64,000 nt of DNA from Candidatus Geothermarchaeota archaeon (GCA_015523725.1 WAJV01000107.1:959-64958); one strand, 5' to 3'; positions 13,215 to 64,000 are shown, counted from the first letter of the stretch. Numbers and translations are program-made. Notes: generated by a model not told the origin, from the letters alone.

Positions 13215-13266
13215 AAAAAAAATAAATTAAATTAAGCGACCACCAATACTATTTATAGATTAGGAT

Positions 13267-15864: not shown

Positions 15865-15876
15865 ACTCAAATACCA

Positions 15877-30151: not shown

Positions 30152-30161
30152 ACAAACCACC

Positions 30162-30326
30162 CTACCTAGGCCGCCACTGACCAGGAGGCCTATTCAACAA
30201 AACCCTCTTCCTATAATTAACCCTATTCCTCCTCCTAGGATTAGTCGGAGCCCTAGGAGAAGGATCAATCTTAGGAGTCAAAGAACGAACCTTTCCTGCT
30301 TTTGTGAGTGAGCCGTGCGTGCCCAT
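30162..30326 (-). CDS. rps30e: 30S ribosomal protein S30e (54 aa, absent from the ORF track because under 60 aa)
   Basis: Hand translation gives MGTHGSLTKAGKVRSLTPKIDPSPRAPTNPRRRNRVNYRKRVLLNRPPGQWRPR, containing the archaeal S30e N-terminal HGSLTKAGKVR..TPK signature. A TTATAAA box and GGTGGGG SD-like sequence lie upstream. Confidence 0.75.
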   Translation of the reverse strand: MGTHGSLTKAGKVRSLTPKIDPSPRAPTNPRRRNRVNYRKRVLLNRPPGQWRPR

Positions 30327-30380
30327 GTGTCCCCACCTTTTCTCTCTGTTTTTAATATTTGCTTCATTGTTTATAAGTTT

Positions 30381-31628: not shown

Positions 31629-32000
31629 TTCCCATCCCTCCAGTCTTTTGGATGCCTATGCCACCGCCTGACTAAAATTATTTCTTGGGCATATTCCCTA
31701 ACGCTTAAATACTTATCTATATTGGGATTGTTTGTTCGATAAACAGGTTGCAGATTTATTTTTAAATAGGTGGGTCGATATATATCTAGGTCTCCGTGTA
31801 CACCTAATGCGAAGATTTTTTTATCCATGGGGGTTTTACTGGATAATTAGGTTTTAGACTGTGAGTATAATGATTGTTTTGGTGTTGGTTCAATCCTAAA
31901 TTGATTAGTTTCGGGACTTATGATTATTTATATCCATATTTATTAATTTTGTGTAAAGAGTTTTGTTGTTAAATGGTTGGGCTAGGGGCTGTATGACGCC

Positions 32001-33554
32001 ATGCCAGTAATAAAAAAAGTGAATTTCCGGCTTCTAAAAAGCTTCAGCTCCATAATGATGCAGCAAATAACTACATATATAATAACCCTAATAACATTCG
32101 GCGTCATATCGAGAATCCTTAGCCCAACCGAGATGGGTGTATATGGATTACTGGTATCAACCGTCTACCTAATAGGCCTGTCATCCAACTTCGGTATGAA
32201 GAAGGTGGCGATTAGACTAATAGCTGGATCAATGGCACACAATGAAGATAGAGTGGCAAGTGGAATATATTGGAAAACCATATTATTATCCCTACCATCA
32301 ACCATTTTACTCGGAATAGGTGCATCCTACCTATATGATAAACTAGGAATATTCAATGAAGTCAATACATCAAATGGATTTATTCTATTCACACTCCTCC
32401 TAATCCTATTCTCAATCAGGAACACAGTATCATCAGGCCTAGAGGCCCTACACCTATTCCATTACGAAACACTATACTACTCAGTAGGATACACAACCTA
32501 TAGACTATTGATGGTATATTTATTAATAAATGGATATGGAGTAAGTGGAATACTTATATCATGGATAATAGGGGAGGCAATCACCACCTTCTACACAATA
32601 AGAAAATTGATAGATAAATTTCCACCCAGCATAAAAGGATATAGCAGCATAAATATACTAAAAAAAGCCTCACCACTATTCATAACGGATATAATATTAT
32701 CTGCAGCCGAATATGGAGATAGGATAGCCTCCACAATACTTGGACTAGACATAGTAGCATTCTTCTACATAGCATCAGTAGGAGTAATGTTCCTCACAAG
32801 CATATACCAAGCAGTCCAATCAAGCATACTACCCCACCTATCAGAAGAATTCCACATAAACGGATTCAACTCAATAGGAGAAAGCCTACATGACATAAGC
32901 AGATACGTATTCATCTTCATATCACCAATATTTTTACTAGCAGCCGTATTAGCAGAGCCATTCATAATCCTCTTAGCAGGCCCCCAATACATAGCGGCAG
33001 CCCCCATATTCCAAATAATGTGCATAGGCCTATGGCTAGGTCCACTGAACCCCATACTACAAAGCACATTCATAGCAGTAGACAGAAACAATGAACTAAT
33101 GGCCACAATACTATTAGCAACAATCCTAGACATATTCATAATGATAATACTCTACCCAAAGATAGGTTATTTATCAACAGGACTTGGAAGAGCCCTACTA
33201 GTCATATCAACCAACATAATCTTACTAGCAATAGGAATAAAACTAATAAACATAAAAATTGATTATATAGCATACGGTAAATCAGCTATATCAGCCGGAA
33301 TAAGTGCAGCAGCGGGACTAATCCTATGGAACTATATCCATAGAATAGACCTACTACCCATATACGTAATAGCACCAACAATAATCTACCTACTAATGAT
33401 TAGATTACTCAGGTTCATAAAACCAGAGGAAGTAGCATCCCTATACCTAAGCCTACCAAAACATAGATACGTAACCCGCGGCATAAAAATCGTATGCATG
33501 TTAACCGGCATAGATATAAATACAGTATTAAAAATAGTCTCTAAATATAAGTAG
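32001..33554 (+). CDS. MOP/Wzx-type oligosaccharide (polysaccharide biosynthesis) flippase
   Basis: 517 aa with about 14 TM helices. Overall MOP-family organisation. Confidence 0.5.
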   Translation: MPVIKKVNFRLLKSFSSIMMQQITTYIITLITFGVISRILSPTEMGVYGLLVSTVYLIGLSSNFGMKKVAIRLIAGSMAHNEDRVASGIYWKTILLSLPSTILLGIGASYLYDKLGIFNEVNTSNGFILFTLLLILFSIRNTVSSGLEALHLFHYETLYYSVGYTTYRLLMVYLLINGYGVSGILISWIIGEAITTFYTIRKLIDKFPPSIKGYSSINILKKASPLFITDIILSAAEYGDRIASTILGLDIVAFFYIASVGVMFLTSIYQAVQSSILPHLSEEFHINGFNSIGESLHDISRYVFIFISPIFLLAAVLAEPFIILLAGPQYIAAAPIFQIMCIGLWLGPLNPILQSTFIAVDRNNELMATILLATILDIFIMIILYPKIGYLSTGLGRALLVISTNIILLAIGIKLINIKIDYIAYGKSAISAGISAAAGLILWNYIHRIDLLPIYVIAPTIIYLLMIRLLRFIKPEEVASLYLSLPKHRYVTRGIKIVCMLTGIDINTVLKIVSKYK

Positions 33555-35457: not shown

Positions 35458-36164
35458 TCCAAATCCCTCCCCGCCAAATAAGGAATCCTATTCACCCTAA
35501 TGACCTGAACATACTTCCTCTCAACCCTTTTAGGCACATCATCAACACCAACATCCCCAAAATCACTCTTTAAATATAAATATGGACCCTTATACTCCTC
35601 ACCAGTCACATAAAAAAAGATATTTCCAGCCAAATCATGATCAGATATAAAAACATTCAAAACATACACACCATTACTTACATCAAACCATATATAGGGT
35701 ATCTCACCCAACTCAAAATATATCGAATTAGCTATAACCAATAGAGACCTTAAATCACTAACCTTAACATACGACAAATTGGAGGCATCACCCAAATCGA
35801 AAACACAATTATGCGGCTCACCAAATAAATAAGAAACAGGGATATATATACCGGACACAATATCTTCATACCCCTCCTCCAAAACCTCAGCCTCATCAAC
35901 CCTATAAGTATATACATTCGGGGGTTTGGAACCTATCACAGTATGTATAAAAGCCAGCTTAGGAGTCTTCACGAAAGAAGGTAGATAAAAACCAATTATA
36001 TAACGCCCCTCACCAGAGGGATAAGAAATCAGACCCGGCTTCTCCCCTTTGACATTAACATGAAGCCTAATCAAATCCAATAAACTATATGCCTCAATAC
36101 CCAATACAGATAAAGTAGCCAACATCAACACCCCAAAACTAAACATATTATAACTATAAGTCAT
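35454..36164 (-). CDS. hypothetical secreted/membrane-anchored protein
   Basis: N-terminal signal/TM MFSFGVLMLATLSVLGIEA. No motif. Confidence 0.35.
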   Translation of the reverse strand: MTYSYNMFSFGVLMLATLSVLGIEAYSLLDLIRLHVNVKGEKPGLISYPSGEGRYIIGFYLPSFVKTPKLAFIHTVIGSKPPNVYTYRVDEAEVLEEGYEDIVSGIYIPVSYLFGEPHNCVFDLGDASNLSYVKVSDLRSLLVIANSIYFELGEIPYIWFDVSNGVYVLNVFISDHDLAGNIFFYVTGEEYKGPYLYLKSDFGDVGVDDVPKRVERKYVQVIRVNRIPYLAGRDLD

Positions 36165-36182
36165 GCAATATTATTTTTTAAG

Positions 36183-36998
36183 ATGAAAGTAAAAAAAGTG
36201 ATGAATACAAGATACTCAATAATAGAGAAGGATGCAAGGATCAAGGAAGCACTTGCAAGGATGGCTAGAGAAAACATAAATAAACTAATAGTAGTAAAAC
36301 ATAAGGGTGATAAAAAGCCATACGGCATAATAACAGAATACGATATATTCTACAGACTATCAAGAACCAAAATTAAGAAATTCGAACCATATAATACATC
36401 AGTAGCAAGCGCCGCAACAACACCCGTTGAAACCGCCAATAAAGAGATGGACCTAAAATTTGTCGCAAAAAACTTCCTAACCAAAGGATACAGCTCAATG
36501 CCCATAGTAGAGAATGATGAAATAATAGGTGTTATAACAAAGGAAGATATAATAAGCCTACTATATAGATATGAAGACCTTATAAACCAGCCAGTTACAC
36601 TATTAACTACACAGATAAAAGGAAAAATCAGGCTCTTTGACAAGCTATCACTCGCACTAAGCAAATTCATGGGAACAGGCTTTAGCAACCTAGTGGTAAT
36701 TGATGATGGAGTGCCTGTAGGCATACTTAAAGTATATGACGTTGCCAAAACCCTATTCACAATTAGAAAAATAAATCCAACCCCCCACTGGGAGAGCGTA
36801 GTAAAGGAAATATATGTAGCTGAAGTTATGAGGAAAGATATAAATATACTTACAAATGAATCCAGCATCAAAGAAGCTCTAAATATTATAATTACCACTA
36901 ACCAACACATCATACCCATAACCGACAATAATAAAGCCGTGGGCCTCATATCTAGAAGCAACATAATAAGATACATGATAAATAATAAACTAATTTAA
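36183..36998 (+). CDS. CBS-domain protein (two CBS pairs)
   Basis: Repeated CBS-like beta-alpha-beta-beta-alpha units (…IIGVITKEDII…, …AVGLISRSNII…). Confidence 0.6.
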   Translation: MKVKKVMNTRYSIIEKDARIKEALARMARENINKLIVVKHKGDKKPYGIITEYDIFYRLSRTKIKKFEPYNTSVASAATTPVETANKEMDLKFVAKNFLTKGYSSMPIVENDEIIGVITKEDIISLLYRYEDLINQPVTLLTTQIKGKIRLFDKLSLALSKFMGTGFSNLVVIDDGVPVGILKVYDVAKTLFTIRKINPTPHWESVVKEIYVAEVMRKDINILTNESSIKEALNIIITTNQHIIPITDNNKAVGLISRSNIIRYMINNKLI

Positions 36999-37012
36999 TG
37001 GTAGGATAGGAT

Positions 37013-37501
37013 ATGGAGACACCTAAATTCATAGCTGACGAGATGAATGGAGATATAGCCAGATGGCTAAGGATAATTGGATTCGACTGCATCTACCTAA
37101 AGGGAGACAAACTAGACGATAAGTTAATTGAAATAGCGGATAAAGAGAATAGAATACTACTCACATCCGATAAAGAACTATTCAAAAAAGCAATATACAG
37201 AGGGGTCGAGACACATTACATCGAGCAAGTAAGATTAGAGGAGAAATTAAAGAAAATAGTTGATAAATATAATCTAAATGAATACATCCCAAAACTCGAA
37301 TATAGATGCCCAATATGCAACCAAAAACTAGTTAAAGCAACAAATATTAAGAAAGTCCCCCCAAAAGTCAAGGAGAAACATAAAATAATCCTATACTGCA
37401 AAAACTGTGACAAATATTACTGGAGAGGAGGCCATTGGAAAAAAATCAATAAAATACTCAAATATGCAGGATTAACAAATACAAGTGTCAATAAATTATA
37501 G
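37013..37501 (+). CDS. Mut7-C/DUF82 PIN-like RNase domain protein with a C-terminal zinc ribbon
   Basis: N-terminus FIADEMNGDIARWLRIIGFDC is characteristic of Mut7-C. CPICN ... CKNC ribbon. Confidence 0.6.
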   Translation: METPKFIADEMNGDIARWLRIIGFDCIYLKGDKLDDKLIEIADKENRILLTSDKELFKKAIYRGVETHYIEQVRLEEKLKKIVDKYNLNEYIPKLEYRCPICNQKLVKATNIKKVPPKVKEKHKIILYCKNCDKYYWRGGHWKKINKILKYAGLTNTSVNKL

Positions 37502-37558
37502 AAGATGAAAGGTACATTTATTTAATATATATCTAAAAGGATACTTATTTAGAGAAGA

Positions 37559-40500
37559 ATGAGAACGTATATCAAAGAGATACGTATAAACAACTACAAA
37601 ACATATAAAAATGCTAGAATAAAATTTCACCCCCAACTCAACATAATAGTTGGTCCAAACGGCTCCGGCAAATCAAACCTCATAGAAGCAATATTATATG
37701 GATTAGGAGAAAGAAGTATGAAGGTATTCAGAGCATATAAATATAAGGACCTCCTCCCAGCAGACTCAAGAAACTCAGCAAAAACACTATCCGTAACAAT
37801 AATAATCGAGGACCAGAATGGAGATGAGCATATCTTCAAAAGAATATATAATGCAAATAACAATACCCATGCATATTACTATAATAGAAAAAGAGTGAGT
37901 AGAGGAGTATACATATCAAAACTAGCCACATTAGGATACAGGGGACTACACCATGTATATATCCCCCAAGGAGGAATAATAAGCAAAGCAAATATAACAT
38001 CAAGAGATTTAAAAGACATCGTAGACGATGCATTAGGAATAAAAGAATTTAATATCAAAAAGCAGGAGGCCCTAGAGAAACTTGAGAAAGCCGAGGCCAA
38101 ACTGGAGAATATAAAGGAAAAACAAGAGATCATGAAGGAAGTAATATATACACTAATGGCTCAAATGATATCATACGATAGAAAGAATAATTTAGATAAG
38201 ATATCAAGAAGAATAAAAGGCTATTTAATAGTCAATGAAAATAAGAAAATAAGGCCCAAACTAACAAAATACACGAAGAAAATAAATGAATTAGAGAATA
38301 TAAAGGAGAAACTAAACAAGAGAATGGAGAAAATAGAGGAGAAAATAACTAAAATCGATGCAAAGATGGGGAAGCTAAGAGAGAAATTAAAGGGCAGAGA
38401 AGAATATCAACAACTACTCAAAGAATATTCAGATGTAAATATCAATATAACTACTACACAAGATAAAATAAAGAGACTTACAGATGACAAAGAGAGATAT
38501 CTAGATGAGATATCCCAGATAGATAAAGATTTAGAAAATATAAAACTCGAAGTAGCTACATACGCAGCCACACTAAAAGAACTAAATCAAGCAAATAGAA
38601 GAAACCAAACAGAGTTAAATAGCCTATATAAAGAGAAAGAAAAACTAGAAAATAAGATAAATAAATTGAGAGAAGAGTTAGACCAAATAATTGAAAAGAA
38701 AGAGAAACTAGAGGAGGAGAAAGAGAATATATTGAAGACGCATATTAAGGAAGAAGCGGAGATAATAGCCATCGAAAAAATAAAAGACTTATATATAGAC
38801 AAGAAGAAGCAGCTAGAAGACAAGAGAAGAAAATATCTAGATACAATAAAAAAATTCGAAGAGAGAATCGAGAAATTAAGCCAAATGAAGACAGAACTAG
38901 ACAATAAACTAAAGAAGCTAAGGAAAGAGAAGGAGAAAAAAGACAATAGATATAGAGAGTTAAAGAGGGAGATAAGAGACGCAGAAAAATTATTAAATAA
39001 AGTAGAGAGATATATTGAGAAACTTAGAAAGGAGGAGGAAATCAGAAACATAGAATTTAAGAATAATGCAGAATACGTACTGAAGATAGCCAAAGATATG
39101 AACTTAAAAGGAGTGTTGGGAATACTATCCAACTTTATAAATGGACCAAAAGAAATCATCAACATCCTAAGAAGATACCTAGGAAGAGAATGGTACAGCA
39201 TCATAGTATATGACGAGGCAACAGCAAAAAAATTATTTAAACTATCGGAGTCAATAAAAAAGAAAGTCGTTATCAAACCAATAACCAAATACATGTCCAA
39301 CGAAGAAAAAATCCATGAAAGAAGTGTGATAAACATATTAAAAATAAAGAACTATAGAAAACTAAAACCACTAGTAAACTCTCTATTTGGGGACTTGATA
39401 ATAACATCAGATCTTGAAGAAGGTATAAAACTCCTAGATGAGGGACATGGAATAATCAGTAGGAAAGGAGAGTTCATAATCACACCAGACAACTGGATAT
39501 ACGAAGGAAGGAAAAGAATGGTCATAGATGAAGACATATCCAAAATAGAAGAAATATACCACCAATTTAAACGAATGATAGACCTAAGGAGAGAAGATCT
39601 AGATAAACTAAATGAAGAAAGAGAGAAACTAATAGACGATATAACAGAAGCCACAAGTGAGTACACCAGACTAAAACAATCTATAGAACTCATAAAGACA
39701 TCAATAGGATACATGAAAGACCTAGAGAAATTCTATCGCAACAAGGTAAAAGAGATAGAGAAAGACCTATCGAAAGAAAAAAATAGAAGAAAGATCGATA
39801 AAACACCATTAGATGAAATTAGAACAATAGAAAATAAAATAAACACTATTTATAAAAAGATGGCGGATTATACAAATGAAATAACCGAAATAAACACAAA
39901 AATAAATAATATAAATAATTTAATTAGTAAAAATAATGCCAATATAGAATTAATAAAAAAATCAATATTGTCGACAAAGGAGAAGAAAGCAAGACTCAAG
40001 AAAAGAAGAAGTGAAGTGAAAACAAGGATAAAAAACATAGATAGGGAGATAAATAATCTAAAAAACACGCTAAAAATATTAGAGAGGAATAAGAAGGAAA
40101 GCGAATCCCAACTCAATAAATTCAATGAAGAAATCAAAGCAATAGAGGATAAACTAGAGAAACTGAATTCACTAAAGAATCAACTATATGGCAAATGGAA
40201 AAAAGCCAATGAAAAACTATCAGACCTAAAGGAAATAGAGACCAGATTAACATACAAAATCAAAACATTGAAGACTAGGCTAATACACAATGAAGACACT
40301 ATATTGAAACTTGGATATACAATAGAGGAACTCTCAAATAAAGAGACAAACATCGAGACTTTAGAGTTACTGCAGCAAGAAGTCGATGAAGAATTAAAAA
40401 GCTTTGAGAAAGAGGCCCACTACCCCTCACCCACAGCCTATATTGAATATAGAGAAAAATATGAGCCATACAAACTATTCACAATAAACCGGGCGAAACT

Positions 40501-41029
40501 AGAGGAGGAAAAAGAGGCGATCCTAGATTTTATTAGAGAGATTGAGATGGAGAAGGAGAGGACATTTAGAGAAGGCTTCACAAAGATCAAGGAGAAATTC
40601 ACCAGACTAATTAATCACGTCTTCCCCGATTCAGAAGTATATATAGAACTAGAGGATCCAGAGGATATAGATAGTGGTTTGGCAGTATATGTAAAGTTAA
40701 GGGATAAACCACAACTCCCAGTAATATCAGCCAGTGGAGGGGAGAAATCACTATTCATCATACTATTTCTACTATCCGTTTATTCCATACCAGGGAACGT
40801 CGTATTCCTACTAGATGAAATTGATGCACATATAGACCCACGTAACCTGAATAAGTTCGCGTCAGCCCTAGAACTCCAAAAGACAGAGAGCCAAATCATA
40901 TACGTAACATTACCCAGGGACGAGGCCCTACCCAGAATATCAGACCACCTAATAGGAATATTTTTCCGCAGAGGAGTTTCCCGCCCAGTAGTTATACCAA
41001 ACACAGAATTATTCAGGGTGGTGAAGTAA
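37559..41029 (+). CDS. smc: SMC chromosome condensation/segregation ATPase
   Basis: N-terminal Walker A GPNGSGKSN. About 800 aa of coiled coil. C-terminal signature SGGEKSL, and D-loop/Walker B LLDEIDAHID. No CxxC zinc hook, so not Rad50. Confidence 0.8.
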   Translation: MRTYIKEIRINNYKTYKNARIKFHPQLNIIVGPNGSGKSNLIEAILYGLGERSMKVFRAYKYKDLLPADSRNSAKTLSVTIIIEDQNGDEHIFKRIYNANNNTHAYYYNRKRVSRGVYISKLATLGYRGLHHVYIPQGGIISKANITSRDLKDIVDDALGIKEFNIKKQEALEKLEKAEAKLENIKEKQEIMKEVIYTLMAQMISYDRKNNLDKISRRIKGYLIVNENKKIRPKLTKYTKKINELENIKEKLNKRMEKIEEKITKIDAKMGKLREKLKGREEYQQLLKEYSDVNINITTTQDKIKRLTDDKERYLDEISQIDKDLENIKLEVATYAATLKELNQANRRNQTELNSLYKEKEKLENKINKLREELDQIIEKKEKLEEEKENILKTHIKEEAEIIAIEKIKDLYIDKKKQLEDKRRKYLDTIKKFEERIEKLSQMKTELDNKLKKLRKEKEKKDNRYRELKREIRDAEKLLNKVERYIEKLRKEEEIRNIEFKNNAEYVLKIAKDMNLKGVLGILSNFINGPKEIINILRRYLGREWYSIIVYDEATAKKLFKLSESIKKKVVIKPITKYMSNEEKIHERSVINILKIKNYRKLKPLVNSLFGDLIITSDLEEGIKLLDEGHGIISRKGEFIITPDNWIYEGRKRMVIDEDISKIEEIYHQFKRMIDLRREDLDKLNEEREKLIDDITEATSEYTRLKQSIELIKTSIGYMKDLEKFYRNKVKEIEKDLSKEKNRRKIDKTPLDEIRTIENKINTIYKKMADYTNEITEINTKINNINNLISKNNANIELIKKSILSTKEKKARLKKRRSEVKTRIKNIDREINNLKNTLKILERNKKESESQLNKFNEEIKAIEDKLEKLNSLKNQLYGKWKKANEKLSDLKEIETRLTYKIKTLKTRLIHNEDTILKLGYTIEELSNKETNIETLELLQQEVDEELKSFEKEAHYPSPTAYIEYREKYEPYKLFTINRAKLEEEKEAILDFIREIEMEKERTFREGFTKIKEKFTRLINHVFPDSEVYIELEDPEDIDSGLAVYVKLRDKPQLPVISASGGEKSLFIILFLLSVYSIPGNVVFLLDEIDAHIDPRNLNKFASALELQKTESQIIYVTLPRDEALPRISDHLIGIFFRRGVSRPVVIPNTELFRVVK

Positions 41030-48099: not shown

Positions 48100-49065
48100 A
48101 TGATCCTAGAAATTCTCTTACTAATCCTAACATTATTTACAATAACACTCCTAACCGGTAATAACATAGGAACCATTAGAGGCCCATTCAAATCACTGGG
48201 GGAGATAAGGAAATTATCCACAATAACAATATTATTTGGAGTATTGATAGGTGTAATAGCAGAAGGCTGGAAGTTAAATAGATTCTATACCGCATACCAA
48301 TTATCAGGTATTGAAGTATTAATATTATTAATTAGCACCACATTCCTAGTACTCATTGGAAACATATATAGAACACCCATATCACTAAACATGTCTATTA
48401 TATCCGGTGTATGGGGTATAAACCTAGCAGCCTCAAACAACTTCGACATCGAATACACCCTCCTGATTATAGCTGCATGGATAACACTCCCACTAATAAG
48501 TATAGTATCATCAGCCGCAATATCCCACATAATAACTAGAAAAAATTTATTGAGGGGGTGGGGAGGCTACTCAATCGAGAAAATCATATCAATAATATCA
48601 ACACTATTTCTAGCATATGTATTCGGTGCGAACACAATAGGACTAATAATATCCATAGTATCGCCGAATCTTAGAATATTTTATGGAGACATAATTCTAC
48701 TATTGGGTATAACAGCATCATATTTAATCGGTATGAAATATTTATCCGGAAGTCTTGAAGCCGGGTTAGCATTCAATATATATAATATAGGCCTAGTCTC
48801 ACTCATATCGAGCCAAATATCCACATTTATCATGCTTGAAATAGCCACACAATTCGGCTTACCAATATCCTTAACCCAAGTCTTCACAATATCACTCATC
48901 GGCGCCTCCCTAAGCCGCAGATTAAAACTAATCAATATTAGATATATAATTCATATGTCCAAAGTCTGGATAACTTCACTTATACTAGGATTCACAATAT
49001 CCATAACACTATATATTCTCCTAAATCTACTCACGATAAATTATCCAGTCCTCCTAACAAGGTAA
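48100..49065 (+). CDS. PiT-family inorganic phosphate/sulfate permease (putative)
   Basis: Polytopic 321 aa. LTGNNIGTIRGPF resembles the PiT GANDVAN-region motif. Two-fold internal repeat. Confidence 0.45.
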   Translation: MILEILLLILTLFTITLLTGNNIGTIRGPFKSLGEIRKLSTITILFGVLIGVIAEGWKLNRFYTAYQLSGIEVLILLISTTFLVLIGNIYRTPISLNMSIISGVWGINLAASNNFDIEYTLLIIAAWITLPLISIVSSAAISHIITRKNLLRGWGGYSIEKIISIISTLFLAYVFGANTIGLIISIVSPNLRIFYGDIILLLGITASYLIGMKYLSGSLEAGLAFNIYNIGLVSLISSQISTFIMLEIATQFGLPISLTQVFTISLIGASLSRRLKLINIRYIIHMSKVWITSLILGFTISITLYILLNLLTINYPVLLTR

Positions 49066-51793: not shown

Positions 51794-54340
51794 CTAAATA
51801 CCTTCAGGGTCCACTATCCCAGCCCTAGTTATAGCGAATACAGCCTCCCCAGGCGGGTGCTCAGGACTATCCACAATTAAAGCTATTCTTAGATTCTTCT
51901 TGGACTTCCTTAAGTAAATCCGATAAGTAACTGCATGCGCCACTACATGGCCACCAACTGGTTTAGTCGGATCGCCAAACATTATATCCGGCTGCTCCTG
52001 AACCTGATTAGTAATCACTATCGCTACATCATACACCTCAGCTATTCTAAGAAGCTCATGCATAAATCTATTAAGTAATTGTTGTCTCTCCGAGAGTTTT
52101 CCCCTACCTATATATTCAGCCCTAAAAGGTGCAATTGCCGAGTCAATCGCGATAAAACCGACATTATTCTCCTTAATCTTTTTAGGTAAAGAATGACTCA
52201 ATAATAATAGATGAGTTGTATTAAAGGCTCTCGCCACAATTATCCGATGTAATGCATCCCGGGGATCCAATCCCCTAGCATTAGCTATATCCACTATCCT
52301 AGATGGACTAAAAGTCTTCTCAGTATCGATATATATGGCATTCATATTCAGACCTCCCTGATCCTCAGGCAGCTGCACATTAACAGCAAGAGTATGACAC
52401 AATTGCGTATTATGAAGTATACAGGGATTTACACCACCAATAAATGTATGATAACCTGGAACCACCACATCATACACGTAATCGTTATACTCTATTAATT
52501 TAGATTTAGTGACTATATCCCACCTCAAATCCTTTATAAATTCTATTGTAGAGACAGCATTTCTCAGAATCTGGATCCGTCGATCCAATTCCCCTAATAA
52601 GACCTCTCTAATCTTCTTCACTTTATTCCTGTCCCTAGGTAGCCCCCTATATACATAATTCCATATTGTAGTCTTTGAAACTCCTAGTTGATTTGCAAGA
52701 ATCCCCCTAACTGAGAATGGAATCTCCCTATAAATCCTCTTGAAATTAACCAGATCATTATCCTCATTAATCACATTTTTAAGCTCTATGAATTTCTCAA
52801 TGTATTTACTGAAGACATTAAGTACCCTATCTACAACATATGTCGAAATATATTTCTGCTTGGATTTAGCCAATCTAATTAGTAAATGATATGCAGCATC
52901 AGCTCCCCAACTATTCCCACCAACATCTTTCCGCAATCTCCCCCGATTACCGCCGATAGTTGATTTGTATACGTTCCTCAAGTAGGTAGAGATAATAGCA
53001 GGCAACTCATCATAATCTTTACTTCTTTTAATAGAATTAACTTCTCGAGATTTAAATGGCAGACTATCTATTTTATACCTATCGTTTCCACTGATAAATA
53101 TTTTATAATAGGTTTTCCCATTAATCTTCTTCTCCCTAAGAACTCCTCTCACTCCTATTCTCAATAATAGATACAGTATATTTGTAGCCAGTCTTTTACT
53201 GGCAGTAGAGAGTTCTATTGCCCCATATTCTCTATAATATCCGCCTCCTTCAATATACCCAGCCAAAAAAGCTTCCACAATCCTTCTAGGTCCATTTAAA
53301 ATAATCTCTGGAATCCATTTATCCCTTGATTTTACTTTAGAGACTTTCACAATCCATTCTCCAACAGGCTTTCTTAAAAGTATTCTAGGCGGATGCCTAC
53401 TACTTTTGTCTCTATATATTTTAGGCTTAAAACCGAACTTCCTATACACGTATTCAGTTATCCATCCTAGCAAACTCTCATCCTTCAGTGAAATCGATAA
53501 GGGATTATACCCTCCTTCAGCGATATATAGACCCATAAAATATGCATCATCTGAATCCAATCCATTGGATTTACCGGCCTCAAAGTCAATCTCTTTGGGA
53601 CACGCTATATAATCCCCCTCCCTTACTTCACTAGCCCTAACCCAGGAAACACCATCCTCCCTAAGAATTAATAATGGATGGCTCTTCGTAATCCTGAGGA
53701 TACCTCCAAACTCAGTATGTATCTCCATCAGCTTCGATACTTTTTCTCTATAAATATAAGGTGCAGCTACGACTTTAAAACCTTCAGGCCCTAAAGCAAG
53801 CACCTTCATTTCTGGAGCGGTGACTAAATAGCCGTCTCCATACTTAGTCTCACCATATAGATCCCTATAGTTTTCATAAAGTTTCTCCATTGTATCAATG
53901 TGTGGAGTGTCTGGATTAATATATAATATTGGAGTGTCCTTAGAGAAACATTTTCCTGAACCGAATTCACCATAGAACTCCGTCACCGCTCCAGTTGCAA
54001 TGCCGCCTTTAAGAAGCTCATCTAAATTTTTTGACCCTGTAGTTATATATCTCCTCATACTAATCTTCTCCATTAAATAGTCCGCAGTCACAAAATCATC
54101 CTCAACCAAGCCACGTTCCTTTAATAAGTTATATGCATTTAGAATAATCTTCTCAGCTCTCTCCACCCCAGTATTCAGCATCTCAGCCAGTTGTATAGGC
54201 GAATATAATAATAATCCCTTCGCATCAGTTATACCCAGCTCCCTTAACTTCCTAGCAGTAACATCACCGATACCGGGAACCTCTTTTAAACTAACCTCTT
54301 CACTCACAACAATCTCCCCACTATACAGATTATACCTCAA
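51794..54340 (-). CDS. radA: DNA repair and recombination protein RadA, interrupted by a 514-aa intein in the Walker A motif
   Basis: N-terminal HhH. GEFGSGK|C...HN|TQLCHTLAVNVQLP splice junctions. Exteins sum to 334 aa with classic RadA motifs. Confidence 0.9.
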   Translation of the reverse strand: MRYNLYSGEIVVSEEVSLKEVPGIGDVTARKLRELGITDAKGLLLYSPIQLAEMLNTGVERAEKIILNAYNLLKERGLVEDDFVTADYLMEKISMRRYITTGSKNLDELLKGGIATGAVTEFYGEFGSGKCFSKDTPILYINPDTPHIDTMEKLYENYRDLYGETKYGDGYLVTAPEMKVLALGPEGFKVVAAPYIYREKVSKLMEIHTEFGGILRITKSHPLLILREDGVSWVRASEVREGDYIACPKEIDFEAGKSNGLDSDDAYFMGLYIAEGGYNPLSISLKDESLLGWITEYVYRKFGFKPKIYRDKSSRHPPRILLRKPVGEWIVKVSKVKSRDKWIPEIILNGPRRIVEAFLAGYIEGGGYYREYGAIELSTASKRLATNILYLLLRIGVRGVLREKKINGKTYYKIFISGNDRYKIDSLPFKSREVNSIKRSKDYDELPAIISTYLRNVYKSTIGGNRGRLRKDVGGNSWGADAAYHLLIRLAKSKQKYISTYVVDRVLNVFSKYIEKFIELKNVINEDNDLVNFKRIYREIPFSVRGILANQLGVSKTTIWNYVYRGLPRDRNKVKKIREVLLGELDRRIQILRNAVSTIEFIKDLRWDIVTKSKLIEYNDYVYDVVVPGYHTFIGGVNPCILHNTQLCHTLAVNVQLPEDQGGLNMNAIYIDTEKTFSPSRIVDIANARGLDPRDALHRIIVARAFNTTHLLLLSHSLPKKIKENNVGFIAIDSAIAPFRAEYIGRGKLSERQQLLNRFMHELLRIAEVYDVAIVITNQVQEQPDIMFGDPTKPVGGHVVAHAVTYRIYLRKSKKNLRIALIVDSPEHPPGEAVFAITRAGIVDPEGI
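52409..53950 (-). mobile_element. RadA P-loop intein with LAGLIDADG homing endonuclease domain (in-frame protein-splicing element)
   Basis: Begins with Cys after GSGK. Block B TKSHPLL. Two dodecapeptide motifs FMGLYIAEGG / FLAGYIEGGG. Ends ILHN followed by Thr+1. Confidence 0.85.
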
Positions 54341-57600: not shown

Positions 57601-58740
57601 ATGGGCAGGGTATTTAAAGAAGGCGGTGAACATATTTTCAGCACGGGATACGTTCCGGATGAACTCCCCCACAGAGAAGAACAGATTAAACAATTAGTAG
57701 ATATAATAAGAGACGGCTTGGAAGTCGATGCATACCATGTACCCATCCTATATGGAGAGACAGGTACAGGTAAAACAACGACTATAATCCATGTACTCAA
57801 TATAATTGATAGAAGATATAAAGGAAGAGTACAGGTAAAACGTGTAAATGCAACGATAAAGAATAGAAGTTACCTCGCTATAACCGATTTAGCGGAAAAG
57901 TTTATCCCTGTACCACCTAGAGGACTAAGTATAGAGGAGATACTAAGCAGACTATATGATAAACTAGACATCCAAGACATGCAATATGTCTTTGCAATAG
58001 ATGATGCAGATGAACTAATTAGAAGGGAGAAGGGAAAGATACTGGAATTGTTGACGAGGATAGAAGAGAACTATGATAGACGACTATTATTCCCAATAAT
58101 AGTGGTTAGGAATCTAAAGTATATTGATGCACTCCCAAGCCATATAACCTCAAAATTAGGAGGCCTTAGAATAGCATTTCCACCATACAAAAAAAGAGAA
58201 TTAAAGGATATTCTTAAAGAAAGAATTGAGAAAGGTATTAGGGATGGGGGAATCACCCAAAACGCCATAGAATGCGCCACCTATAATGTAGAGAAATTGC
58301 TTGGTGGAAACGCCAGAGAACTACTAAATATAATATTAATGGCCGGGAAGCTGGTTGAAAGGAGGGGAGGGGATAAAATAGAGTCGGAGCATATTAGACA
58401 GGCATTATATGAGTCATACTCATCTCGACTCTCATCAGGATTAACCATAAAGAAACCCAGAGATAAGAAATATAGGGTGTTATGGGCAATCTATAAAGTA
58501 CTTCATGAAGAGCAAGACAAATATTATATAGATGATGAGATAATACAAGAAGCATTTGAAATATATAAAACAACCTTCCAAATCGAAGACCTAAACAAAG
58601 AAGATATTCCCGACATCCTTCTCGACATGGCTATATATGAAAAACAGAATCTAATTGCCTTAGATGAGGGTAGACTAGCAGCAGCCCATTATCCAGTAAG
58701 CCTAGTATTTCAGATATTAACTAACAACCTATTCTTCTAG
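57601..58740 (+). CDS. orc1: Orc1/Cdc6 replication initiator
   Basis: AAA+ Walker A LYGETGTGKTTT, Walker B AIDDADEL, and a C-terminal winged helix. Confidence 0.8.
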   Translation: MGRVFKEGGEHIFSTGYVPDELPHREEQIKQLVDIIRDGLEVDAYHVPILYGETGTGKTTTIIHVLNIIDRRYKGRVQVKRVNATIKNRSYLAITDLAEKFIPVPPRGLSIEEILSRLYDKLDIQDMQYVFAIDDADELIRREKGKILELLTRIEENYDRRLLFPIIVVRNLKYIDALPSHITSKLGGLRIAFPPYKKRELKDILKERIEKGIRDGGITQNAIECATYNVEKLLGGNARELLNIILMAGKLVERRGGDKIESEHIRQALYESYSSRLSSGLTIKKPRDKKYRVLWAIYKVLHEEQDKYYIDDEIIQEAFEIYKTTFQIEDLNKEDIPDILLDMAIYEKQNLIALDEGRLAAAHYPVSLVFQILTNNLFF

Positions 58741-58827: not shown

Positions 58828-59118
58828 ATGAAGAAGTTAGTTCTCTATACACCCGAGAATATTGAGGGAGAGAAACTATTTAGATTAGTTAAGGCCTTGA
58901 AGCAGGAGGCTGAACTACTCAGACTAAGCTTCACAGGACCCATATTCCGAGAAGACGATAAATTAGTAGTCTACTATGAAGACGATGAGATAAGGACATT
59001 CATCTATGTAGATGATCTAAATAATGAATTGGATACGGAGAAAATAAGAGCCACAATAAAGGTCTTAGCCTTAATAGCGATGGATAAAGAAGAGGAAATA
59101 TATGTCGAAAACATATAA
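58828..59118 (+). CDS. hypothetical acidic protein
   Basis: 96 aa with native codon usage. No motif. Confidence 0.3.
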   Translation: MKKLVLYTPENIEGEKLFRLVKALKQEAELLRLSFTGPIFREDDKLVVYYEDDEIRTFIYVDDLNNELDTEKIRATIKVLALIAMDKEEEIYVENI

Positions 59119-59126: not shown

Positions 59127-59438
59127 CTAGTGGCACCCCATCCCATAAGAATCATAGTCATAATTATCCATCATACCATCATAGCCATGCATCATATGCA
59201 TATGGTGCATCATATCCTCGCACTCCTCGTGAGACTCTGGATAGCCATGGTCATCATCAGTGGAATGCCCTTCATCACCAGCCATCATACCGCCACCCCA
59301 GTGAGCACCATGCATTACTGAACTATATACATATCCAGAGACCAAGGGCGCCACCGCCAACACAAACAATAAACCAACCAGAACAACCAATAAACCATCC
59401 TTCATAACAATCACCAATCCCATCATAAACAGAAACAA
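59127..59438 (-). CDS. secreted Met/His-rich putative metal (Cu/Co/Ni)-binding protein
   Basis: Signal/TM anchor, then a C-terminal 50 aa packed with H and M (MMHHMHMMHGYDGMM, HWGGGMMAGDEGH). T/G3 codon usage unlike neighbouring native genes. Confidence 0.5.
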   Translation of the reverse strand: MFLFMMGLVIVMKDGLLVVLVGLLFVLAVAPLVSGYVYSSVMHGAHWGGGMMAGDEGHSTDDDHGYPESHEECEDMMHHMHMMHGYDGMMDNYDYDSYGMGCH

Positions 59439-59531
59439 TACTTAAACATACCTGAAACAAGCCGAAACAACCCCGAACAAAAAACAAAAACTTAAAAACA
59501 AAAACCAAAAAAATATACAATACAGAAACTA

Positions 59532-59624
59532 GGGCCCGTCGTCTAGCTTGGCTAGGATGCCAGCCTGGGGACCCATATTGGGCTAGTGCGCTGGTGATCG
59601 TGGGTTCAAATCCCACCGGGCCCA
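59532..59624 (+). tRNA. tRNA-Pro (anticodon GGG by the preferred fold, UGG alternative) with an approximately 18-nt intron after position 37
   Basis: Acceptor GGGCCCG/CGGGCCC. T-arm GTGGG-TTCAAAT-CCCAC. Anticodon stem CCAGC/GCTGG. Loop C-T-GGG-G, then an 18-nt insert. Discriminator A. Confidence 0.7.
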
Positions 59625-60212
59625 CCTAGGACCCTTATTTATTTTTAGTGTATAAGTTTCGACTGATGTTTTAGGAGTGGATATTAATAAATAAAGATGA
59701 GGATGGAGCTGGTTTTTCTATATGATAGGCCTAGTTGCATTTCTAGTATGCTGAAACTAGCTTCACCGAGAGATCTCTGGACAAACTGCTCTATAAAAAT
59801 AACTATTTGATAGTTATGATGATTTGTCATGAGTTTCTCACCGTCTCTCTTGATAGATACGCTTCCAGCCTTAGTAACTAGGTATGGTCCTGTAGCTGTT
59901 ATATCAAGATATTTCTCTAGTAGGTACTTTACATAGTATAGTAGTTTTATACTGTTGTTTGAAAGAAATATTCGCATAAACCTATAATTAGATCCGTCTT
60001 ATCGTATAGTCTTCTTAGGAGCTTGCTACGGTTTCATGGTTATACCTGATGTATGGTGTCAATGTTTCCAATGTCTGCCATTTATACTATGTGCAGAACC
60101 CCTTCGAGCTATAGTATATTCTCCACATATTTTAGCTAATACTCCATATTGGCGTCTTATATTTCTGTCACTTAATTTACATTCCCAATAATTTTTATAT
60201 TATGGTGTTATT

Positions 60213-61145
60213 ATGCATATACCTGATGGTGTTCTAGATCCAGCTACATCATCATTTTTCTATTTAATAACTATCATATATGGCATATTAGTGATAAAGT
60301 ATATTAAAAGGAAAAGAGGCGTCTCGGATTATAACATATCAGTTATCTCCACCGTAACTGCATTAGTATTTATTGCTCAAATGATTAACTGGCCTATTCC
60401 AGGTGGTACGTCTCTACATTTGGTTGGTGGCGGATTAGTGGGTGTGTTATTAGGCCCCATTTATGGCTATCTTTCGATGTCTATTGTTCTAGCTGTTCAA
60501 TGTTTCCTTTTTGGCGACGGAGGAGTGTCGGCATTAGGGGCCAATATTTTTAATATGGCTATTATCGGTGTCTTAAGCGGGTATGTTGTATACCGCATTA
60601 CAAAACAATTTTTATCGAATTCTTCCAAAGCCGTTTTTATTGCCGGTTTTTTGGCAGGATGGTTGAGCCTTGCGCTAGCAGGATTTGCTTGTGGGGTAGA
60701 GATCGGAATATCCAGATATTTCGGATTTAACTTAGGGATTACTGTACCAATCATGACCGGATGGCACATTATATTAGGGCTCATTGAAGGTTTTTTAACA
60801 GCATTAATATTGGAATATTTCTCTAGAAAATTTGGTAACGAGTATCTACTAACTGGTGGAAACGCAAGTTATGATCTCAGTATAATAAATGCATCAATGG
60901 TCTTAGCTCTCTTTGTATCCCCATTGTTTTCCATTTTCCTAGCTAATATGATGGGTTACAAGGAGCCTATAGATCTAATACTTGATTTAATAGGTTTTAA
61001 GACAGGGGGAAGAGTTTTAACATCACCCTTTATGGGGTATTCATTCCCCTTTCTACCCAGTTTTTTAGGATATATTCTTTCAGGTTTTATTGGTGTAACA
61101 GTCATTTATGCGATATTTATAATGGTTAAGCTTGTATCCAAATGA
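60213..61145 (+). CDS. cbiM: ECF transporter substrate-specific component CbiM/NikM, probably CbiM-CbiN fusion
   Basis: Diagnostic N-terminus MHIPDGVL. 310 aa with a roughly 90-aa two-TM C-terminal extension. T3 codon usage. Confidence 0.7.
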   Translation: MHIPDGVLDPATSSFFYLITIIYGILVIKYIKRKRGVSDYNISVISTVTALVFIAQMINWPIPGGTSLHLVGGGLVGVLLGPIYGYLSMSIVLAVQCFLFGDGGVSALGANIFNMAIIGVLSGYVVYRITKQFLSNSSKAVFIAGFLAGWLSLALAGFACGVEIGISRYFGFNLGITVPIMTGWHIILGLIEGFLTALILEYFSRKFGNEYLLTGGNASYDLSIINASMVLALFVSPLFSIFLANMMGYKEPIDLILDLIGFKTGGRVLTSPFMGYSFPFLPSFLGYILSGFIGVTVIYAIFIMVKLVSK

Positions 61146-61156
61146 GCTGACTATAT

Positions 61157-61966
61157 ATGAAAATAACCTACCAATCAATCATCGAGAGATTAATTATATT
61201 CTTAACTGACACTCTCTCCATATTTTATACTGAGTTTAGCAATATAAGTTCAGTTTCGCCACCTATTTTTTTGTTATTCACAGTTGTTTTTGCATTATTA
61301 TCATCTTATTCAAATAAATACATTCTATCATTAATATTATTGATTAATTATATAGTACTTTCAATAGCTTTTGGAACTAATTTCAAAAAACTTTATAATA
61401 TATTAACCATATCTGCAATCTTTCTATTTATATTCTTAAGCCCTTTTATCATCTACTATTTTTACATATTTGGTTTTGATGAAGCTATTTATTTTATATT
61501 GAATGAGAGTAATGGTCTTGCAATTATTTTTATTAGGTCTATCTTAAGTATTTGCTATTTATCCATGATACCTCTCGTCTTAGGGATAGATGGATTGATC
61601 CAATCGTTAAGGGGCCTTGGGCTGTCTAAAACACAAGTATTAGCTTTTTTTCTAACATACAGGAAATTATTAAGCTTAATTCAGGAAATAATTATCATCA
61701 TTATGGGCAGAGCATCTAGAAGACTAAATAAAAAAGAGAATATTATTAATCTATGGAGGAATTTAGCAGAAGGTGTGGCTGAATTTATTTATAGAGGGCT
61801 TTCTATAGGGTTTATGATAGGCCTGGGATTTAAAAGCAGAATTATTATGTCTGAATTCCCATATCGTAGAATTAACAGTTCAAAAATTCGTACATCAATT
61901 TATGTTGCATACTCTTTTCTTATAATAATGGTTAGTCTATATATCCTGGTGATTAGGATTGAATAA
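61157..61966 (+). CDS. cbiQ: ECF transporter transmembrane (T) component CbiQ
   Basis: Polytopic 269 aa between cbiM and cbiO. Confidence 0.5.
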   Translation: MKITYQSIIERLIIFLTDTLSIFYTEFSNISSVSPPIFLLFTVVFALLSSYSNKYILSLILLINYIVLSIAFGTNFKKLYNILTISAIFLFIFLSPFIIYYFYIFGFDEAIYFILNESNGLAIIFIRSILSICYLSMIPLVLGIDGLIQSLRGLGLSKTQVLAFFLTYRKLLSLIQEIIIIIMGRASRRLNKKENIINLWRNLAEGVAEFIYRGLSIGFMIGLGFKSRIIMSEFPYRRINSSKIRTSIYVAYSFLIIMVSLYILVIRIE

Positions 61967-62780
61967 TTATTTGATTGAATGTAACGATTTAGTTTTCATA
62001 TATCCAGATAATACCGTTGCTTTGAATAAAGTGTCTTTTAGGGTCTCTGAAGGGGAATGTATAGGTATTGTCGGGCCTACAGGTTCAGGTAAATCTACCC
62101 TGCTTTTAATTATATCCGGTTTATTATTTCCTACAAAGGGTCGGGTTAAATATAAGGGTAAGGATATCTCTAAATATGATGCTTTAAGAAGAGAGGTAGC
62201 CATACTATTTCAAAATCCATTTAATCAGTTTTTGACATCAAATGTCTTTGATGAAATAGCATATATTCCACGTCAGTTGGGTATTAAGGAAGATGAGATA
62301 ATAAAAATCGTTAAATATTACTCTCATAAACTAGGTTTGGATCATTTGCTTAACAAATCACCTTTTAGAATCAGTGGAGGAGAAGCACGTAGATTAGGAA
62401 TCGCCATGGTTTTGTCCTATAACCCAGATGTCATATTACTTGATGAACCCTTTTCAGACCTATCTCCAAAATATATAAAGATTGTTAAAGATATTCTTAA
62501 AGATTTGAAGGAAAATGGGAAAACTATACTTCTAAGCAGTCACTCCCTACATCACATGCTTGATATAGTTGATAAGCTCTTAATTTTGAATAAAGGGAAA
62601 GTTTTAGCATTCGCTGATATAGAAACCATAATTCGTAATGATGACCTTATTAAGATGGCTGATTTAGAGATACCATGCTACATTAAGATTCTTCAGGAAC
62701 TAGGGATGAGGGATATTAGACCACTCCCTAGGACTCTTAAAGATTTTGTGGAAGTCTTTATACATCATTATGGTAAATAA
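61959..62780 (+). CDS. cbiO: ECF transporter ATPase CbiO
   Basis: Walker A GPTGSGKST, signature ISGGEARR and Walker B ILLDEP. Confidence 0.85.
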   Translation: MNNYLIECNDLVFIYPDNTVALNKVSFRVSEGECIGIVGPTGSGKSTLLLIISGLLFPTKGRVKYKGKDISKYDALRREVAILFQNPFNQFLTSNVFDEIAYIPRQLGIKEDEIIKIVKYYSHKLGLDHLLNKSPFRISGGEARRLGIAMVLSYNPDVILLDEPFSDLSPKYIKIVKDILKDLKENGKTILLSSHSLHHMLDIVDKLLILNKGKVLAFADIETIIRNDDLIKMADLEIPCYIKILQELGMRDIRPLPRTLKDFVEVFIHHYGK

Positions 62781-62858
62781 AATTATTTTATATTATATAC
62801 ATGACCTATTCATAATTGTTTCCATAATTCAAAAATTTTTAATAAAATTATCCTTTTA

Positions 62859-64000
62859 TCAAGAATTATTTTGGTTACCCCCTCCCTTTCTAATACTGTT
62901 CTCTATCTCAATTAGATCCTTAATATATAAATTATTTTCATCTCGCGCTCTATGTATTCCGAATAAACCCCTCTTAATAACCTCGAACAAATTCTTAATC
63001 CTATGTCTCAACACCTCCTTTACCAAATATTTAGGCCTCAAATAAAACCTTTGATATGCCCAGTGAAGAAGCCTACGGACATCATCCAATGAAAAACGGT
63101 ATCCACGCATAATAGGCTGAATAGTAGTATATCTGCTCCAATCCCATACTTCTATGAAACCCATCGACTTAGCATATTCATATAATGGAGTCCCAGGAAA
63201 GGGTGTTGCGGCAGTGAACTGAGCATAATCAAGACCTAAGTCAATTGAGAATTTCACAATATTCTTCATGTCATCTATAGTCTGCCATGGAAAACCCAAT
63301 ATAAAACTACCCGCAGCCTCTAAACCAAATAAATGGGTTAATTCAACAGCCCTCCAAACCTGACTTATAGTAACCTTCTTACCTATCCTAACCAGATCCT
63401 CATCCTTATACGACTCAATACCATAATATATTATGGAGCAACCGCTCCTACTTAACCCTGCCAAGACCTCTCTATCCACGTTACTAACTCTAGAGCCGCA
63501 GGTATATGTTATGTCTAGCCCCCTATCCATTATCAGCTCTGTAAACTTAAGCACCCATCTCTTACTAAGCGTTAACTCATCATCGGTAAAAGCCACTATA
63601 CGCGTATTATATTTGTCTAAGGCCTCCTCAATCTCATCGACAACGGACTCGGGGCTCCTAATCCTATACCTCCTCCCCCATAAATAACTAGTAGTGCAAT
63701 AAATACATCCATATGGACATCCTCTACTAGCCATAATATGAACAATCCTAATAGGCTTATCAAATAGAGTATAACGATCCATAGGAAGGAGGTGCCTAGC
63801 TGGCCTAGGCAATATATCTAAATCCCGAATAAGTTCACGATATCCATTAAACCTTGGAACTCCCTCTACTCTATAAGCAACGCCCCTAATCTCCCGCAAA
63901 TCAGGGCGTCCAGACTCAATATACCTAACCAACTCTAGAGAAGTAAACTCACCCTCACCGACAACAACATAGTCAACATAACCAGTGGATAAAGCCTCAT
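62859..64000 (-). CDS. B12-binding (class B) radical SAM enzyme, 5' end beyond window
   Basis: rSAM cluster CPYGCIYC. The frame stays open upstream of the track start to the window edge, through ...DYVVVGEGE..., a cobalamin-binding-domain motif. T3 codon usage. Confidence 0.65.
   Translation of the reverse strand, partial: EALSTGYVDYVVVGEGEFTSLELVRYIESGRPDLREIRGVAYRVEGVPRFNGYRELIRDLDILPRPARHLLPMDRYTLFDKPIRIVHIMASRGCPYGCIYCTTSYLWGRRYRIRSPESVVDEIEEALDKYNTRIVAFTDDELTLSKRWVLKFTELIMDRGLDITYTCGSRVSNVDREVLAGLSRSGCSIIYYGIESYKDEDLVRIGKKVTISQVWRAVELTHLFGLEAAGSFILGFPWQTIDDMKNIVKFSIDLGLDYAQFTAATPFPGTPLYEYAKSMGFIEVWDWSRYTTIQPIMRGYRFSLDDVRRLLHWAYQRFYLRPKYLVKEVLRHRIKNLFEVIKRGLFGIHRARDENNLYIKDLIEIENSIRKGGGNQNNS

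Follow-up and report, generated by a model that had tools for sequence, protein, structure and literature searches.

Probable relocation of a native Ni/Co transporter operon into a homing-endonuclease locus beside tRNA-Pro in a strand-biased Candidatus Geothermarchaeota genome

In genomes with a strong replication strand bias (Borrelia and other bacteria), genes that have been recently inverted keep the codon usage of their former strand. The present work deals with a related case in a stretch of 64,000 nucleotides from a Candidatus Geothermarchaeota archaeon (GCA_015523725.1, WAJV01000107.1:959-64958), hereafter the window, in which a cbiMQO operon, predicted to encode a metal importer of the energy-coupling factor (ECF) type, lies beside a tRNA-Pro gene. 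The explanation that fits best, to which a probability of about 60% can be given, is that a Ni/Co ECF operon native to the clade was recently relocated, or flipped, into a homing-endonuclease locus placed 3' of tRNA-Pro. Skews as strong as those found in this genome are, to our knowledge, not the norm in archaea.

The locus can be compared with four kinds of known systems. Like the strand-switched genes of Borrelia and others, it shows orientation-dependent codons and a few genes with the signature of the other strand, which are best read as a recent switch; unlike them, it belongs to an archaeon and would have changed place as well, rather than being simply inverted where it lay. With tRNA-associated integrative islands it shares a lineage-specific atypical block beside a tRNA gene, absent at the same site in a relative, but here there is no integrase or att site, the junction lies ~0.5 kb from the tRNA, the block spans ~3.2 kb only, and its cargo is of the host clade and carries the host dinucleotide signature. 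CbiMNQO/NikMNQO are reportedly the group-I ECF transporters for cobalt and nickel described by Rodionov et al. in 2006; the operon resembles them in joining a CbiM with N-terminal MHIPDG, a fused PDGLE/CbiN-like segment, CbiQ and CbiO, and differs in that NCBIfam equivalogs score below cut-off and that the nikR neighbour has been lost. Finally, as expected of free-standing LAGLIDADG genes, an intact gene of the helix-turn-helix (HTH)+LAGLIDADG_3 type lies 3' of tRNA-Pro in relatives, with a C-terminal remnant in the window, and a second intact copy (30381-31628) sits in a patch of reversed skew, as mobile DNA would; in contrast with such elements, the copy at the tRNA-Pro locus is dead, and a role of the endonuclease in the rearrangement is conjectural.

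Two further sequences cover the same locus as the window, an ENA scaffold of 78.5 kb (L163), which extends the sequence to 74.3 kb (10.3 kb more), and a Logan contig (L001); both differ from the window by few single-nucleotide polymorphisms (SNPs). Relatives at the tRNA-Pro locus were found via Orc1 (contigs L002, L166, L167, L168, L169 and L172), and L171 was used as outgroup. The scan of genome contigs with Orc1 gave one close relative, the 8.5-kb contig L002, which ends 248 nt past the tRNA.

Strand-specific synonymous bias and the limits of the patch

On the basis of the sequence alone, it had been proposed that native genes prefer A in third codon positions and that codon usage switches abruptly at 59127, where an acquired island would begin. 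Third-position counts, first made on 62 open reading frames (ORFs) of the window, gave A3≈.5 and C3≈.2 for + strand genes and T3≈.45 and G3≈.3 for - strand genes. In the codon test, amino-acid effects were removed by considering 4-fold degenerate sites only, and each gene was compared with genes of the same orientation (chi2, 3 df). Pooled over the 64-kb window, these sites contain A.57, C.22, G.09 and T.12 in + strand genes, vs A.20, C.12, G.19 and T.49 in - strand genes. The + strand of the window is A/C-rich at synonymous sites whichever direction a gene takes, so that genes on the two strands use opposite synonymous codons. The preference for A therefore holds for + strand genes and fails for radA, a - strand gene with A.25 and T.40.

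Measured on the + strand, the AT skew at 4-fold sites comes to about +0.65 for + genes and +0.43 for - genes, with C exceeding G, and its sign is constant from 1 to 74.3 kb, across orc1/cdc6 too, except in two reversed patches. This is a strand-specific mutational bias, and it is very strong in this genome. What looks like a codon switch at 59127 largely reflects a change in the direction of the genes: the gene for a Met/His-rich protein that begins there (chi2 1.8) and the gene for a B12-binding radical SAM protein at the other side of the operon (chi2 1.6) are ordinary - strand genes. A replication origin at orc1 was also considered as the cause of the switch and was rejected, because the skew keeps the same sign in the radical SAM gene and in the next 10 kb. 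No repeated ORB-like motif was detected by orc1; a conserved motif at 58774 is present in a single copy (<=4 mismatches allowed).

What is left of the distinct block, once orientation is taken into account, is the cbiMQO operon: the Met/His and radical SAM genes are native in profile, whereas cbiM, cbiQ and cbiO reach chi2 values of 62, 69 and 109 against the other + genes, among which the maximum is 26. Against the pool of - genes the values fall to 39, 15 and 10, respectively, so that the three genes are nearer to the - profile than to the + profile; their 4-fold composition (A.28-.36, T.32-.46) lies between the two native profiles. Coding-strand tetranucleotides behave in the same way, with r = 0.49 for the operon against the + pool and 0.68 against the - pool; native + genes give r = 0.62-0.94 with the + pool and are all nearer to it than to the - pool. 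The sequence-only reading had already argued that this is not a membrane-protein effect, and the present data agree, because the strongest outlier is the soluble CbiO and other + strand genes for membrane proteins (4569-5144, 32001-33554 and 48100-49065) are native in profile.

The out-of-place stretch comprises 59625-62858 only (3.2 kb), and both of its ends are within the window. Spacers outside it, at 59439-59531 and 64332-64579, are strongly A/C-rich, and those inside it, at 59625-60212 and 62781-62858, are T-rich. The AT skew of 59625-60212 on the + strand is -0.19, native spacers being mostly zero or positive, and that of 62781-62858, the spacer between the converging cbiO and radical SAM genes which forms the right end of the patch, is -0.10 vs +0.41 at 64332-64579. 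The island had been thought to continue past the window; instead, the patch ends at 62858 and the 10.3 kb that L163 adds to the window are native throughout, each of their 13 genes having the native, orientation-specific 4-fold profile. When the dinucleotide signature is strand-symmetrised, the patch is not foreign either: its distance (×1000) to the remaining 74 kb is 35.6, other 3.2-kb chunks giving 51±27, and its distance to the relatives' loci is 58-111.

The same locus in L172 and L168 has a skew of the same sign, weaker in most genes (roughly +0.1 to +0.4), and in L171 the skew is about 0. A bias as extreme as that of the window is present in at least one further organism of the same CbiM clade, that of L174, a contig with 4-fold AT skews of -0.4 to -0.8 for genes of either orientation; its gene context is different, and its cbi genes are fully equilibrated to the strand bias of that contig. 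A literature search on strong strand asymmetry in archaea returned general and bacterial papers only, and no description for this lineage. At the syntenic locus the closest relatives have a far weaker asymmetry, and this feature of the genome is more notable than the relocation. It could help to locate origins and termini and to date rearrangements in an uncultured thermophilic archaeal lineage, and it poses the question of what changed in the replication or repair machinery of the lineage. It also calls for caution: where strand bias is strong, the orientation of genes is enough to mimic a codon-usage island, and tests for such islands need strand awareness and restriction to synonymous sites.

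Besides 59625-62858, the skew is reversed in only one stretch of the 74 kb, 30152-32000, where both flanking spacers are reversed too. Its ORF (30381-31628, -) encodes an intact HTH + LAGLIDADG_3 protein of 415 aa and has the profile of the opposite strand (4-fold A.52, T.18). This patch looks like a free-standing homing-endonuclease element that was recently inserted or flipped.

The tRNA-Pro locus and its counterpart in relatives

The gene order RadA-AsnRS-glycosyltransferase-AMMECR1-Orc1-96-aa ORF-Met/His gene is common to five contigs from about four related species, and tRNA-Pro comes next in L002, L166, L168 and L172, where the contig reaches it. The gene orc1/cdc6 (57601-58740, +; Pfam AAA_22 + Cdc6_lid) is the anchor of the left flank outside the patch; L002, L166-L169 and L172 have it in synteny, with products of 64-69% identity. 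Along the same contigs of relatives, AsnRS is 83-85% and the glycosyltransferase 57-60% identical to the window. In L169 the flank is kept as far as the 96-aa ORF, the contig breaking off within the gene that follows, and L167 contains a Met/His homologue and stops before the tRNA. The 96-aa conserved ORF (58828-59118, +), a resident gene of unassigned function whose 4-fold profile equals that of native + genes, has counterparts of 74-85% identity at the same place in every close relative. Homologues of the Met/His-rich protein (42-58% identity) are encoded between this ORF and tRNA-Pro in L002, L166, L168 and L172.

A tRNA gene had been noticed in the boundary zone, and it is indeed there: tRNA-Pro(GGG), at 59532-59624 on the + strand, scores 51.5 bits with Rfam RF00005 and contains an 18-nt intron (anticodon and intron were read from the sequence). 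ARAGORN missed this intron-containing gene, which Rfam recovered. The same tRNA-Pro(GGG) is found in L002 (8156-8260), L166, L168 (8687-8778) and L172 (6331-6435), with nearly identical exons and different introns, of 18 nt in the window and L168 and of about 31 nt, A-rich, in L002 and L172. Since the Met/His gene and tRNA-Pro are conserved at the locus in relatives, both are resident and not part of the cargo.

In L172 the tRNA-Pro gene is followed by an intact LAGLIDADG gene (6458-7231), a 79-nt spacer, u232 (68.5%) and a HAD gene (68%), and the counterparts of u232 and HAD are the genes at 64.6-66.0 kb in the window's genome. Compared with L172, the window has cbiMQO and the radical SAM gene in addition, between the endonuclease gene and u232, and L172 is an empty site for the block. 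It is the one relative contig that spans the site, the others stopping at or just past the LAGLIDADG gene.

The roughly 590 nt between tRNA-Pro and cbiM (59625-60212) had been described as apparently decayed, and comparison with relatives tells of what. An intact HTH+LAGLIDADG_3 gene of 257-260 aa lies on the - strand directly 3' of tRNA-Pro in L166, L168 and L172; the intact genes of L172 (257 aa) and L168 (260 aa) were used as references in tblastn and BLASTP, the LAGLIDADG_3 domain having been assigned by Pfam in both proteins. Of the intact protein, residues ~176-252 are matched by 59744-59974 (-), with 42% identity over 78 aa and 58.5 bits, and residues ~119-153 by 60024-60128, weakly and with a frame shift. 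Nothing is left of the N-terminal ~118 codons, exactly on the side facing cbiM. In the 97-aa ORF of this stretch, Pfam gave no domain at E≤0.001. Hence 59625-60212 (-), the left part of the patch, is an HTH-LAGLIDADG homing-endonuclease pseudogene in its ancestral position, which holds the junction with cbiM.

The relatives' contigs, L172 excepted, stop 0.3-2 kb after Orc1/tRNA-Pro, at or just past the LAGLIDADG gene, and the 248 nt of L002 past the tRNA have no LAGLIDADG match at all. The contig breaks and the difference in L002 suggest that the locus contains a repeated element or varies between strains. A comparison at DNA level between the non-coding tails of the relatives' contigs and the window gave no match.

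The tRNA itself had been suspected of being the integration target. The junction is found about 500-590 nt downstream of it, inside the endonuclease pseudogene. A search with Pfam on all ORFs of 59-64 kb, together with the annotation up to 74.3 kb, revealed no integrase, recombinase or transposase. As regards att sites, the tRNA has no other match of >=12 nt on either strand of the 74.3 kb, and its last 30 nt have no match elsewhere in them at <=7 mismatches. A 21-nt direct repeat at 59625/62727, whose first copy begins right at the 3' end of the tRNA, was tried as an att pair and discarded: the two copies agree at 17/21 positions, which is chance level, the repeat is 1 of 44 families in 5.3 kb and is absent in relatives, and its second copy is within the coding sequence of cbiO.

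The operon, its homologues and the radical SAM gene

The operon consists of cbiM/nikM, encoding the S-component with a fused C-terminal PDGLE (CbiN-like) segment (60213-61145, +; Pfam CbiM 199.6 bits), cbiQ, encoding the T-component (61157-61966, +; Pfam CbiQ 29.8 bits), and cbiO, encoding the ATPase (61959-62780, +; Pfam ABC_tran 109.9 bits). These three scores exceed the Pfam gathering scores, and the gene content given by the sequence-only reading, including the B12-binding radical SAM gene, was right. The C-terminal ~100 aa of CbiM score 22.8 bits with PDGLE, below the cut-off of 27, and the same fused architecture is found in the homologues P0002-P0005. All scores with the NCBIfam 'cobalt transporter CbiM' equivalogs are under cut-off. 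From its domains, the operon is predicted to encode a group-I ECF importer of Ni2+ and/or Co2+; the orthologous operons of relatives adjoin nikR, which makes nickel no less probable a substrate than cobalt.

The best available CbiM homologue, P0002, is 55% identical overall and 67% in the CbiM domain, and the metagenome-assembled genome (MAG) to which it belongs, together with L002, is the relative of highest Orc1 identity. Identity to the sister MAG is 40% for CbiQ and 57-59% for CbiO. In a neighbour-joining tree of the CbiM domain (60 best matches), the window groups with P0002, then with P0003/P0004 and then with P0005, in one clade that is separate from Desulfurococcales, Thermofilaceae and other archaeal sequences. 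Identities in the domain follow the same order (P0002 67% > P0003 64% > P0004 63% > P0005 60%), and the ranking of Orc1 (L002 69% > L169 66% > L168 64%) parallels that of CbiM for the lineages taken as the same, where P0002, L002 and L161 are from one MAG, P0004 and L169 are from the same sequencing run, the pairing of P0005 with L168 rests only on common samples and similar GC, and P0003 has no matching Orc1 contig. Positional orthologues in the relatives are 49-56% identical to each other and 48-55% identical to the window. The proposal that the cargo came from another lineage is thus contradicted by the CbiM tree, by the parallel ranking of Orc1 and by the native dinucleotide signature; on these comparisons cbiMQO belongs to the clade no less than the genes that flank it.

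In relatives the operon occupies another locus. L161 (with L162, which is the same sequence) and L173 have the order HMGR-CoA transferase-MVK-CBS, cbiM-cbiQ-cbiO, nikR (convergent)-ACAD-ETF, and the left flank and cbiM-cbiQ are found likewise in a third lineage (L175-L177), whose contigs end before the right flank. In L174 (JGI 3300037673, Ga0314854_000514; 1-16536), cbiMQO-nikR adjoins NiFe-hydrogenase genes. The neighbour called nikR in relatives matches NikR models below the NCBIfam cut-offs. No nikR was found in the 74 kb available for the window's genome.

The B12-binding (class B) radical SAM gene lies on the - strand at 62859-64331, converging with cbiO, and leaves the window at 64000; its length (490 aa) was obtained from L001 and L163. 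The product has the Pfam domains B12-binding (PF02310) and Radical_SAM (PF04055) with a CPYGCIYC motif (class B CxxxCxxC), and no NCBIfam equivalog reaches its cut-off. Its tetranucleotides correlate with the - pool at r = 0.89 and with the + pool at 0.33. Because its composition is fully equilibrated, the gene is a long-term resident in its present orientation. cbiMQO and this convergent gene cannot have come jointly as one piece, because one of the two would then bear the wrong strand signature.

A functional unity of cobalt/nickel uptake and a cobalamin-dependent enzyme had also been claimed for the block. In relatives cbiMQO is beside nikR. Among 80 metagenome-contig loci with homologues of the radical SAM protein (<=62% identity), none is syntenic with the window and none (0/80) contains CbiM or CbiQ, which shows only that cbi genes are not a usual neighbour of this family. 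The association of cobalt uptake with the B12-binding enzyme is probably coincidental. In many other archaeal contigs (among them L087-L094, L100, L105-L107 and L111-L116) a second radical SAM gene is found ~0.5 kb downstream of the homologue; it has no counterpart downstream of the gene of the window, where cbiO converges instead.

Explanations for the patch and remaining features

According to the explanation favoured here, cbiMQO would have left the nikR-linked CBS locus without nikR and would have been inserted in the LAGLIDADG locus 3' of tRNA-Pro, the 5' part of the endonuclease gene being destroyed. It would now lie on the strand opposite to that of its codon adaptation, with re-equilibration only partial. 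The mechanism may have been illegitimate or break-induced (double-strand-break-associated) recombination at the endonuclease locus. Three elements of this account are inferences: that the operon was inserted at this site and not lost at others, that its source was the same genome, and the mechanism. As an event it is ordinary, a small change of gene order that involves a common transporter.

Several points weigh against it. The CBS|nikR locus in the window's own genome may be empty or may hold a second cbiMQO, in which case the operon studied here would be a paralogue or xenologue. A source in a related organism that lacks strand bias would likewise explain the operon's 4-fold composition (A≈.34, T≈.39). 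L172 is the only relative contig across the site, and since L168 and the window stand at about the same distance from the other relatives, parsimony alone cannot polarise insertion and deletion. There are no repeats or other scars that mark a mechanism. Lastly, the radical SAM gene is absent at the site in L172 and yet compositionally native in the window.

The second of these points leads to the strongest competitor, namely that cbiMQO was recently acquired from a related archaeon without strong bias and entered the same LAGLIDADG locus. The 4-fold composition of the operon resembles that of the weak-skew relatives L160, L173 and L165, L172 has the empty site, and the locus is variable, with its contig breaks and a different sequence after the tRNA in L002. 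Nevertheless, with a best homologue at 55% (CbiM domain 67%) any donor must be unsampled, the identity of the operon to relatives is that found between positional orthologues, and the dinucleotide signature places the patch at a distance of 35.6 from the host, against 58-111 from the loci of relatives. Horizontal transfer within the clade is therefore regarded as a possible but clearly less likely origin. What stood of the proposed horizontally acquired island is a block beside tRNA-Pro that is absent in L172 and whose cbiMQO genes are out of equilibrium; its foreign and integrative nature did not, the case for horizontal transfer having been built largely on a compositional artefact in which strand-dependent codons were taken for a contrast between native and foreign DNA.

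It could also be supposed that the order tRNA-Pro-LAGLIDADG-cbiMQO-radical SAM-u232 is old, that L172 lost or never had cbiMQO and the radical SAM gene, and that cbiMQO was inverted in place. This would suit the fully equilibrated radical SAM gene, a long-term resident at or near the site, and the likeness of cbiMQO to - strand-type genes lying on the + strand. It is rendered improbable by the position of cbiMQO in three relatives, at a different locus that is conserved among them (beside nikR in two), and by the lost 5' part of the LAGLIDADG gene, which abuts cbiM as an insertion junction would. Inverted repeats flanking cbiMQO (60213-62858) were limited to short matches of low identity, at chance level.

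A classical foreign island integrated at tRNA-Pro, made up of the Met/His gene, cbiMQO and the radical SAM gene and extending past the window, would account for the tRNA at the boundary, the atypical cbiMQO codons and the empty site in a relative, but is very improbable given that 59-74 kb contain no integrase and no tRNA-derived repeat, that relatives share the Met/His gene and the tRNA, that the radical SAM gene and the next 10 kb are native, and that the cargo has its nearest relatives in the same clade and a native symmetrised signature. An artefact (a chimera in what is evidently a metagenome-assembled contig, or gene-specific selection or membrane amino-acid content, as 2/3 of the cbi genes encode membrane proteins) deserves equally little credence: mis-assembly is unlikely because both junctions recur in independent assemblies differing by SNPs (the left one in the window and L163, 24 SNPs apart in 11 kb, the right one also in the Logan contig), only 4-fold sites were used, CbiO is soluble and other + strand membrane-protein genes have a native profile.

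Beyond the relocation itself, it can be speculated, with much doubt, that this lineage, and independently the organism of L174, has an unusually strong replication-strand bias (4-fold AT skew about 0.4-0.65, unbroken for at least 74 kb), under which recent strand switches show up as patches of reversed skew, and that breaks made by homing endonucleases are hotspots which capture or relocate native operons. Such a role would fit the LAGLIDADG homing-endonuclease gene that each of the two reversed-skew patches of the 74 kb holds.

As for the resident genes of the left flank, RadA is encoded with an intein at 51794-54340 (-), followed by AsnRS, the glycosyltransferase and AMMECR1, all on the - strand. 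An intein with a LAGLIDADG domain brings RadA to 848 aa in the window and to 837 aa in L169, whereas the protein has 317-323 aa and no intein in L166-L168, L172 and L171, and apparently none in L002; this amounts to a presence/absence polymorphism among close relatives. The Met/His-rich protein (59127-59438, -; 103 aa) has an N-terminal hydrophobic segment, a tail of variable length rich in Met, His, Asp, Glu and Cys, and a conserved C-terminal GMGCH. Its length is ~100-125 aa across relatives, the longer gene calls in L166 and L168 overrunning the tRNA. It has no Pfam or NCBIfam match and may bind metal. On the other side, the genes past the window in L163 are u232 (64580-65278) and those for a HAD hydrolase, MaoC, CutA1, a nitroreductase, a CDF efflux protein and a 119-aa unknown, followed by HxlR, DoxX, ThiS, a radical SAM-SPASM protein, AOR and a partial ORF.

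Milder outliers are present elsewhere in the window. The gene at 27911-29365 (-), for a 484-aa protein with a C-terminal cupredoxin domain, has a chi2 of 47 and weak skew, and two small ORFs, 20698-21090 (+) and 21113-21601 (-), have an AT skew near zero or reversed. Within the 74 kb, the symmetrised dinucleotide signature deviates most at 36000-39500 (delta* up to 179; mean 51), a region that coincides with an ORF of 1156 aa (37559-41029, +) which is very A-rich at codon positions 1 and 2.

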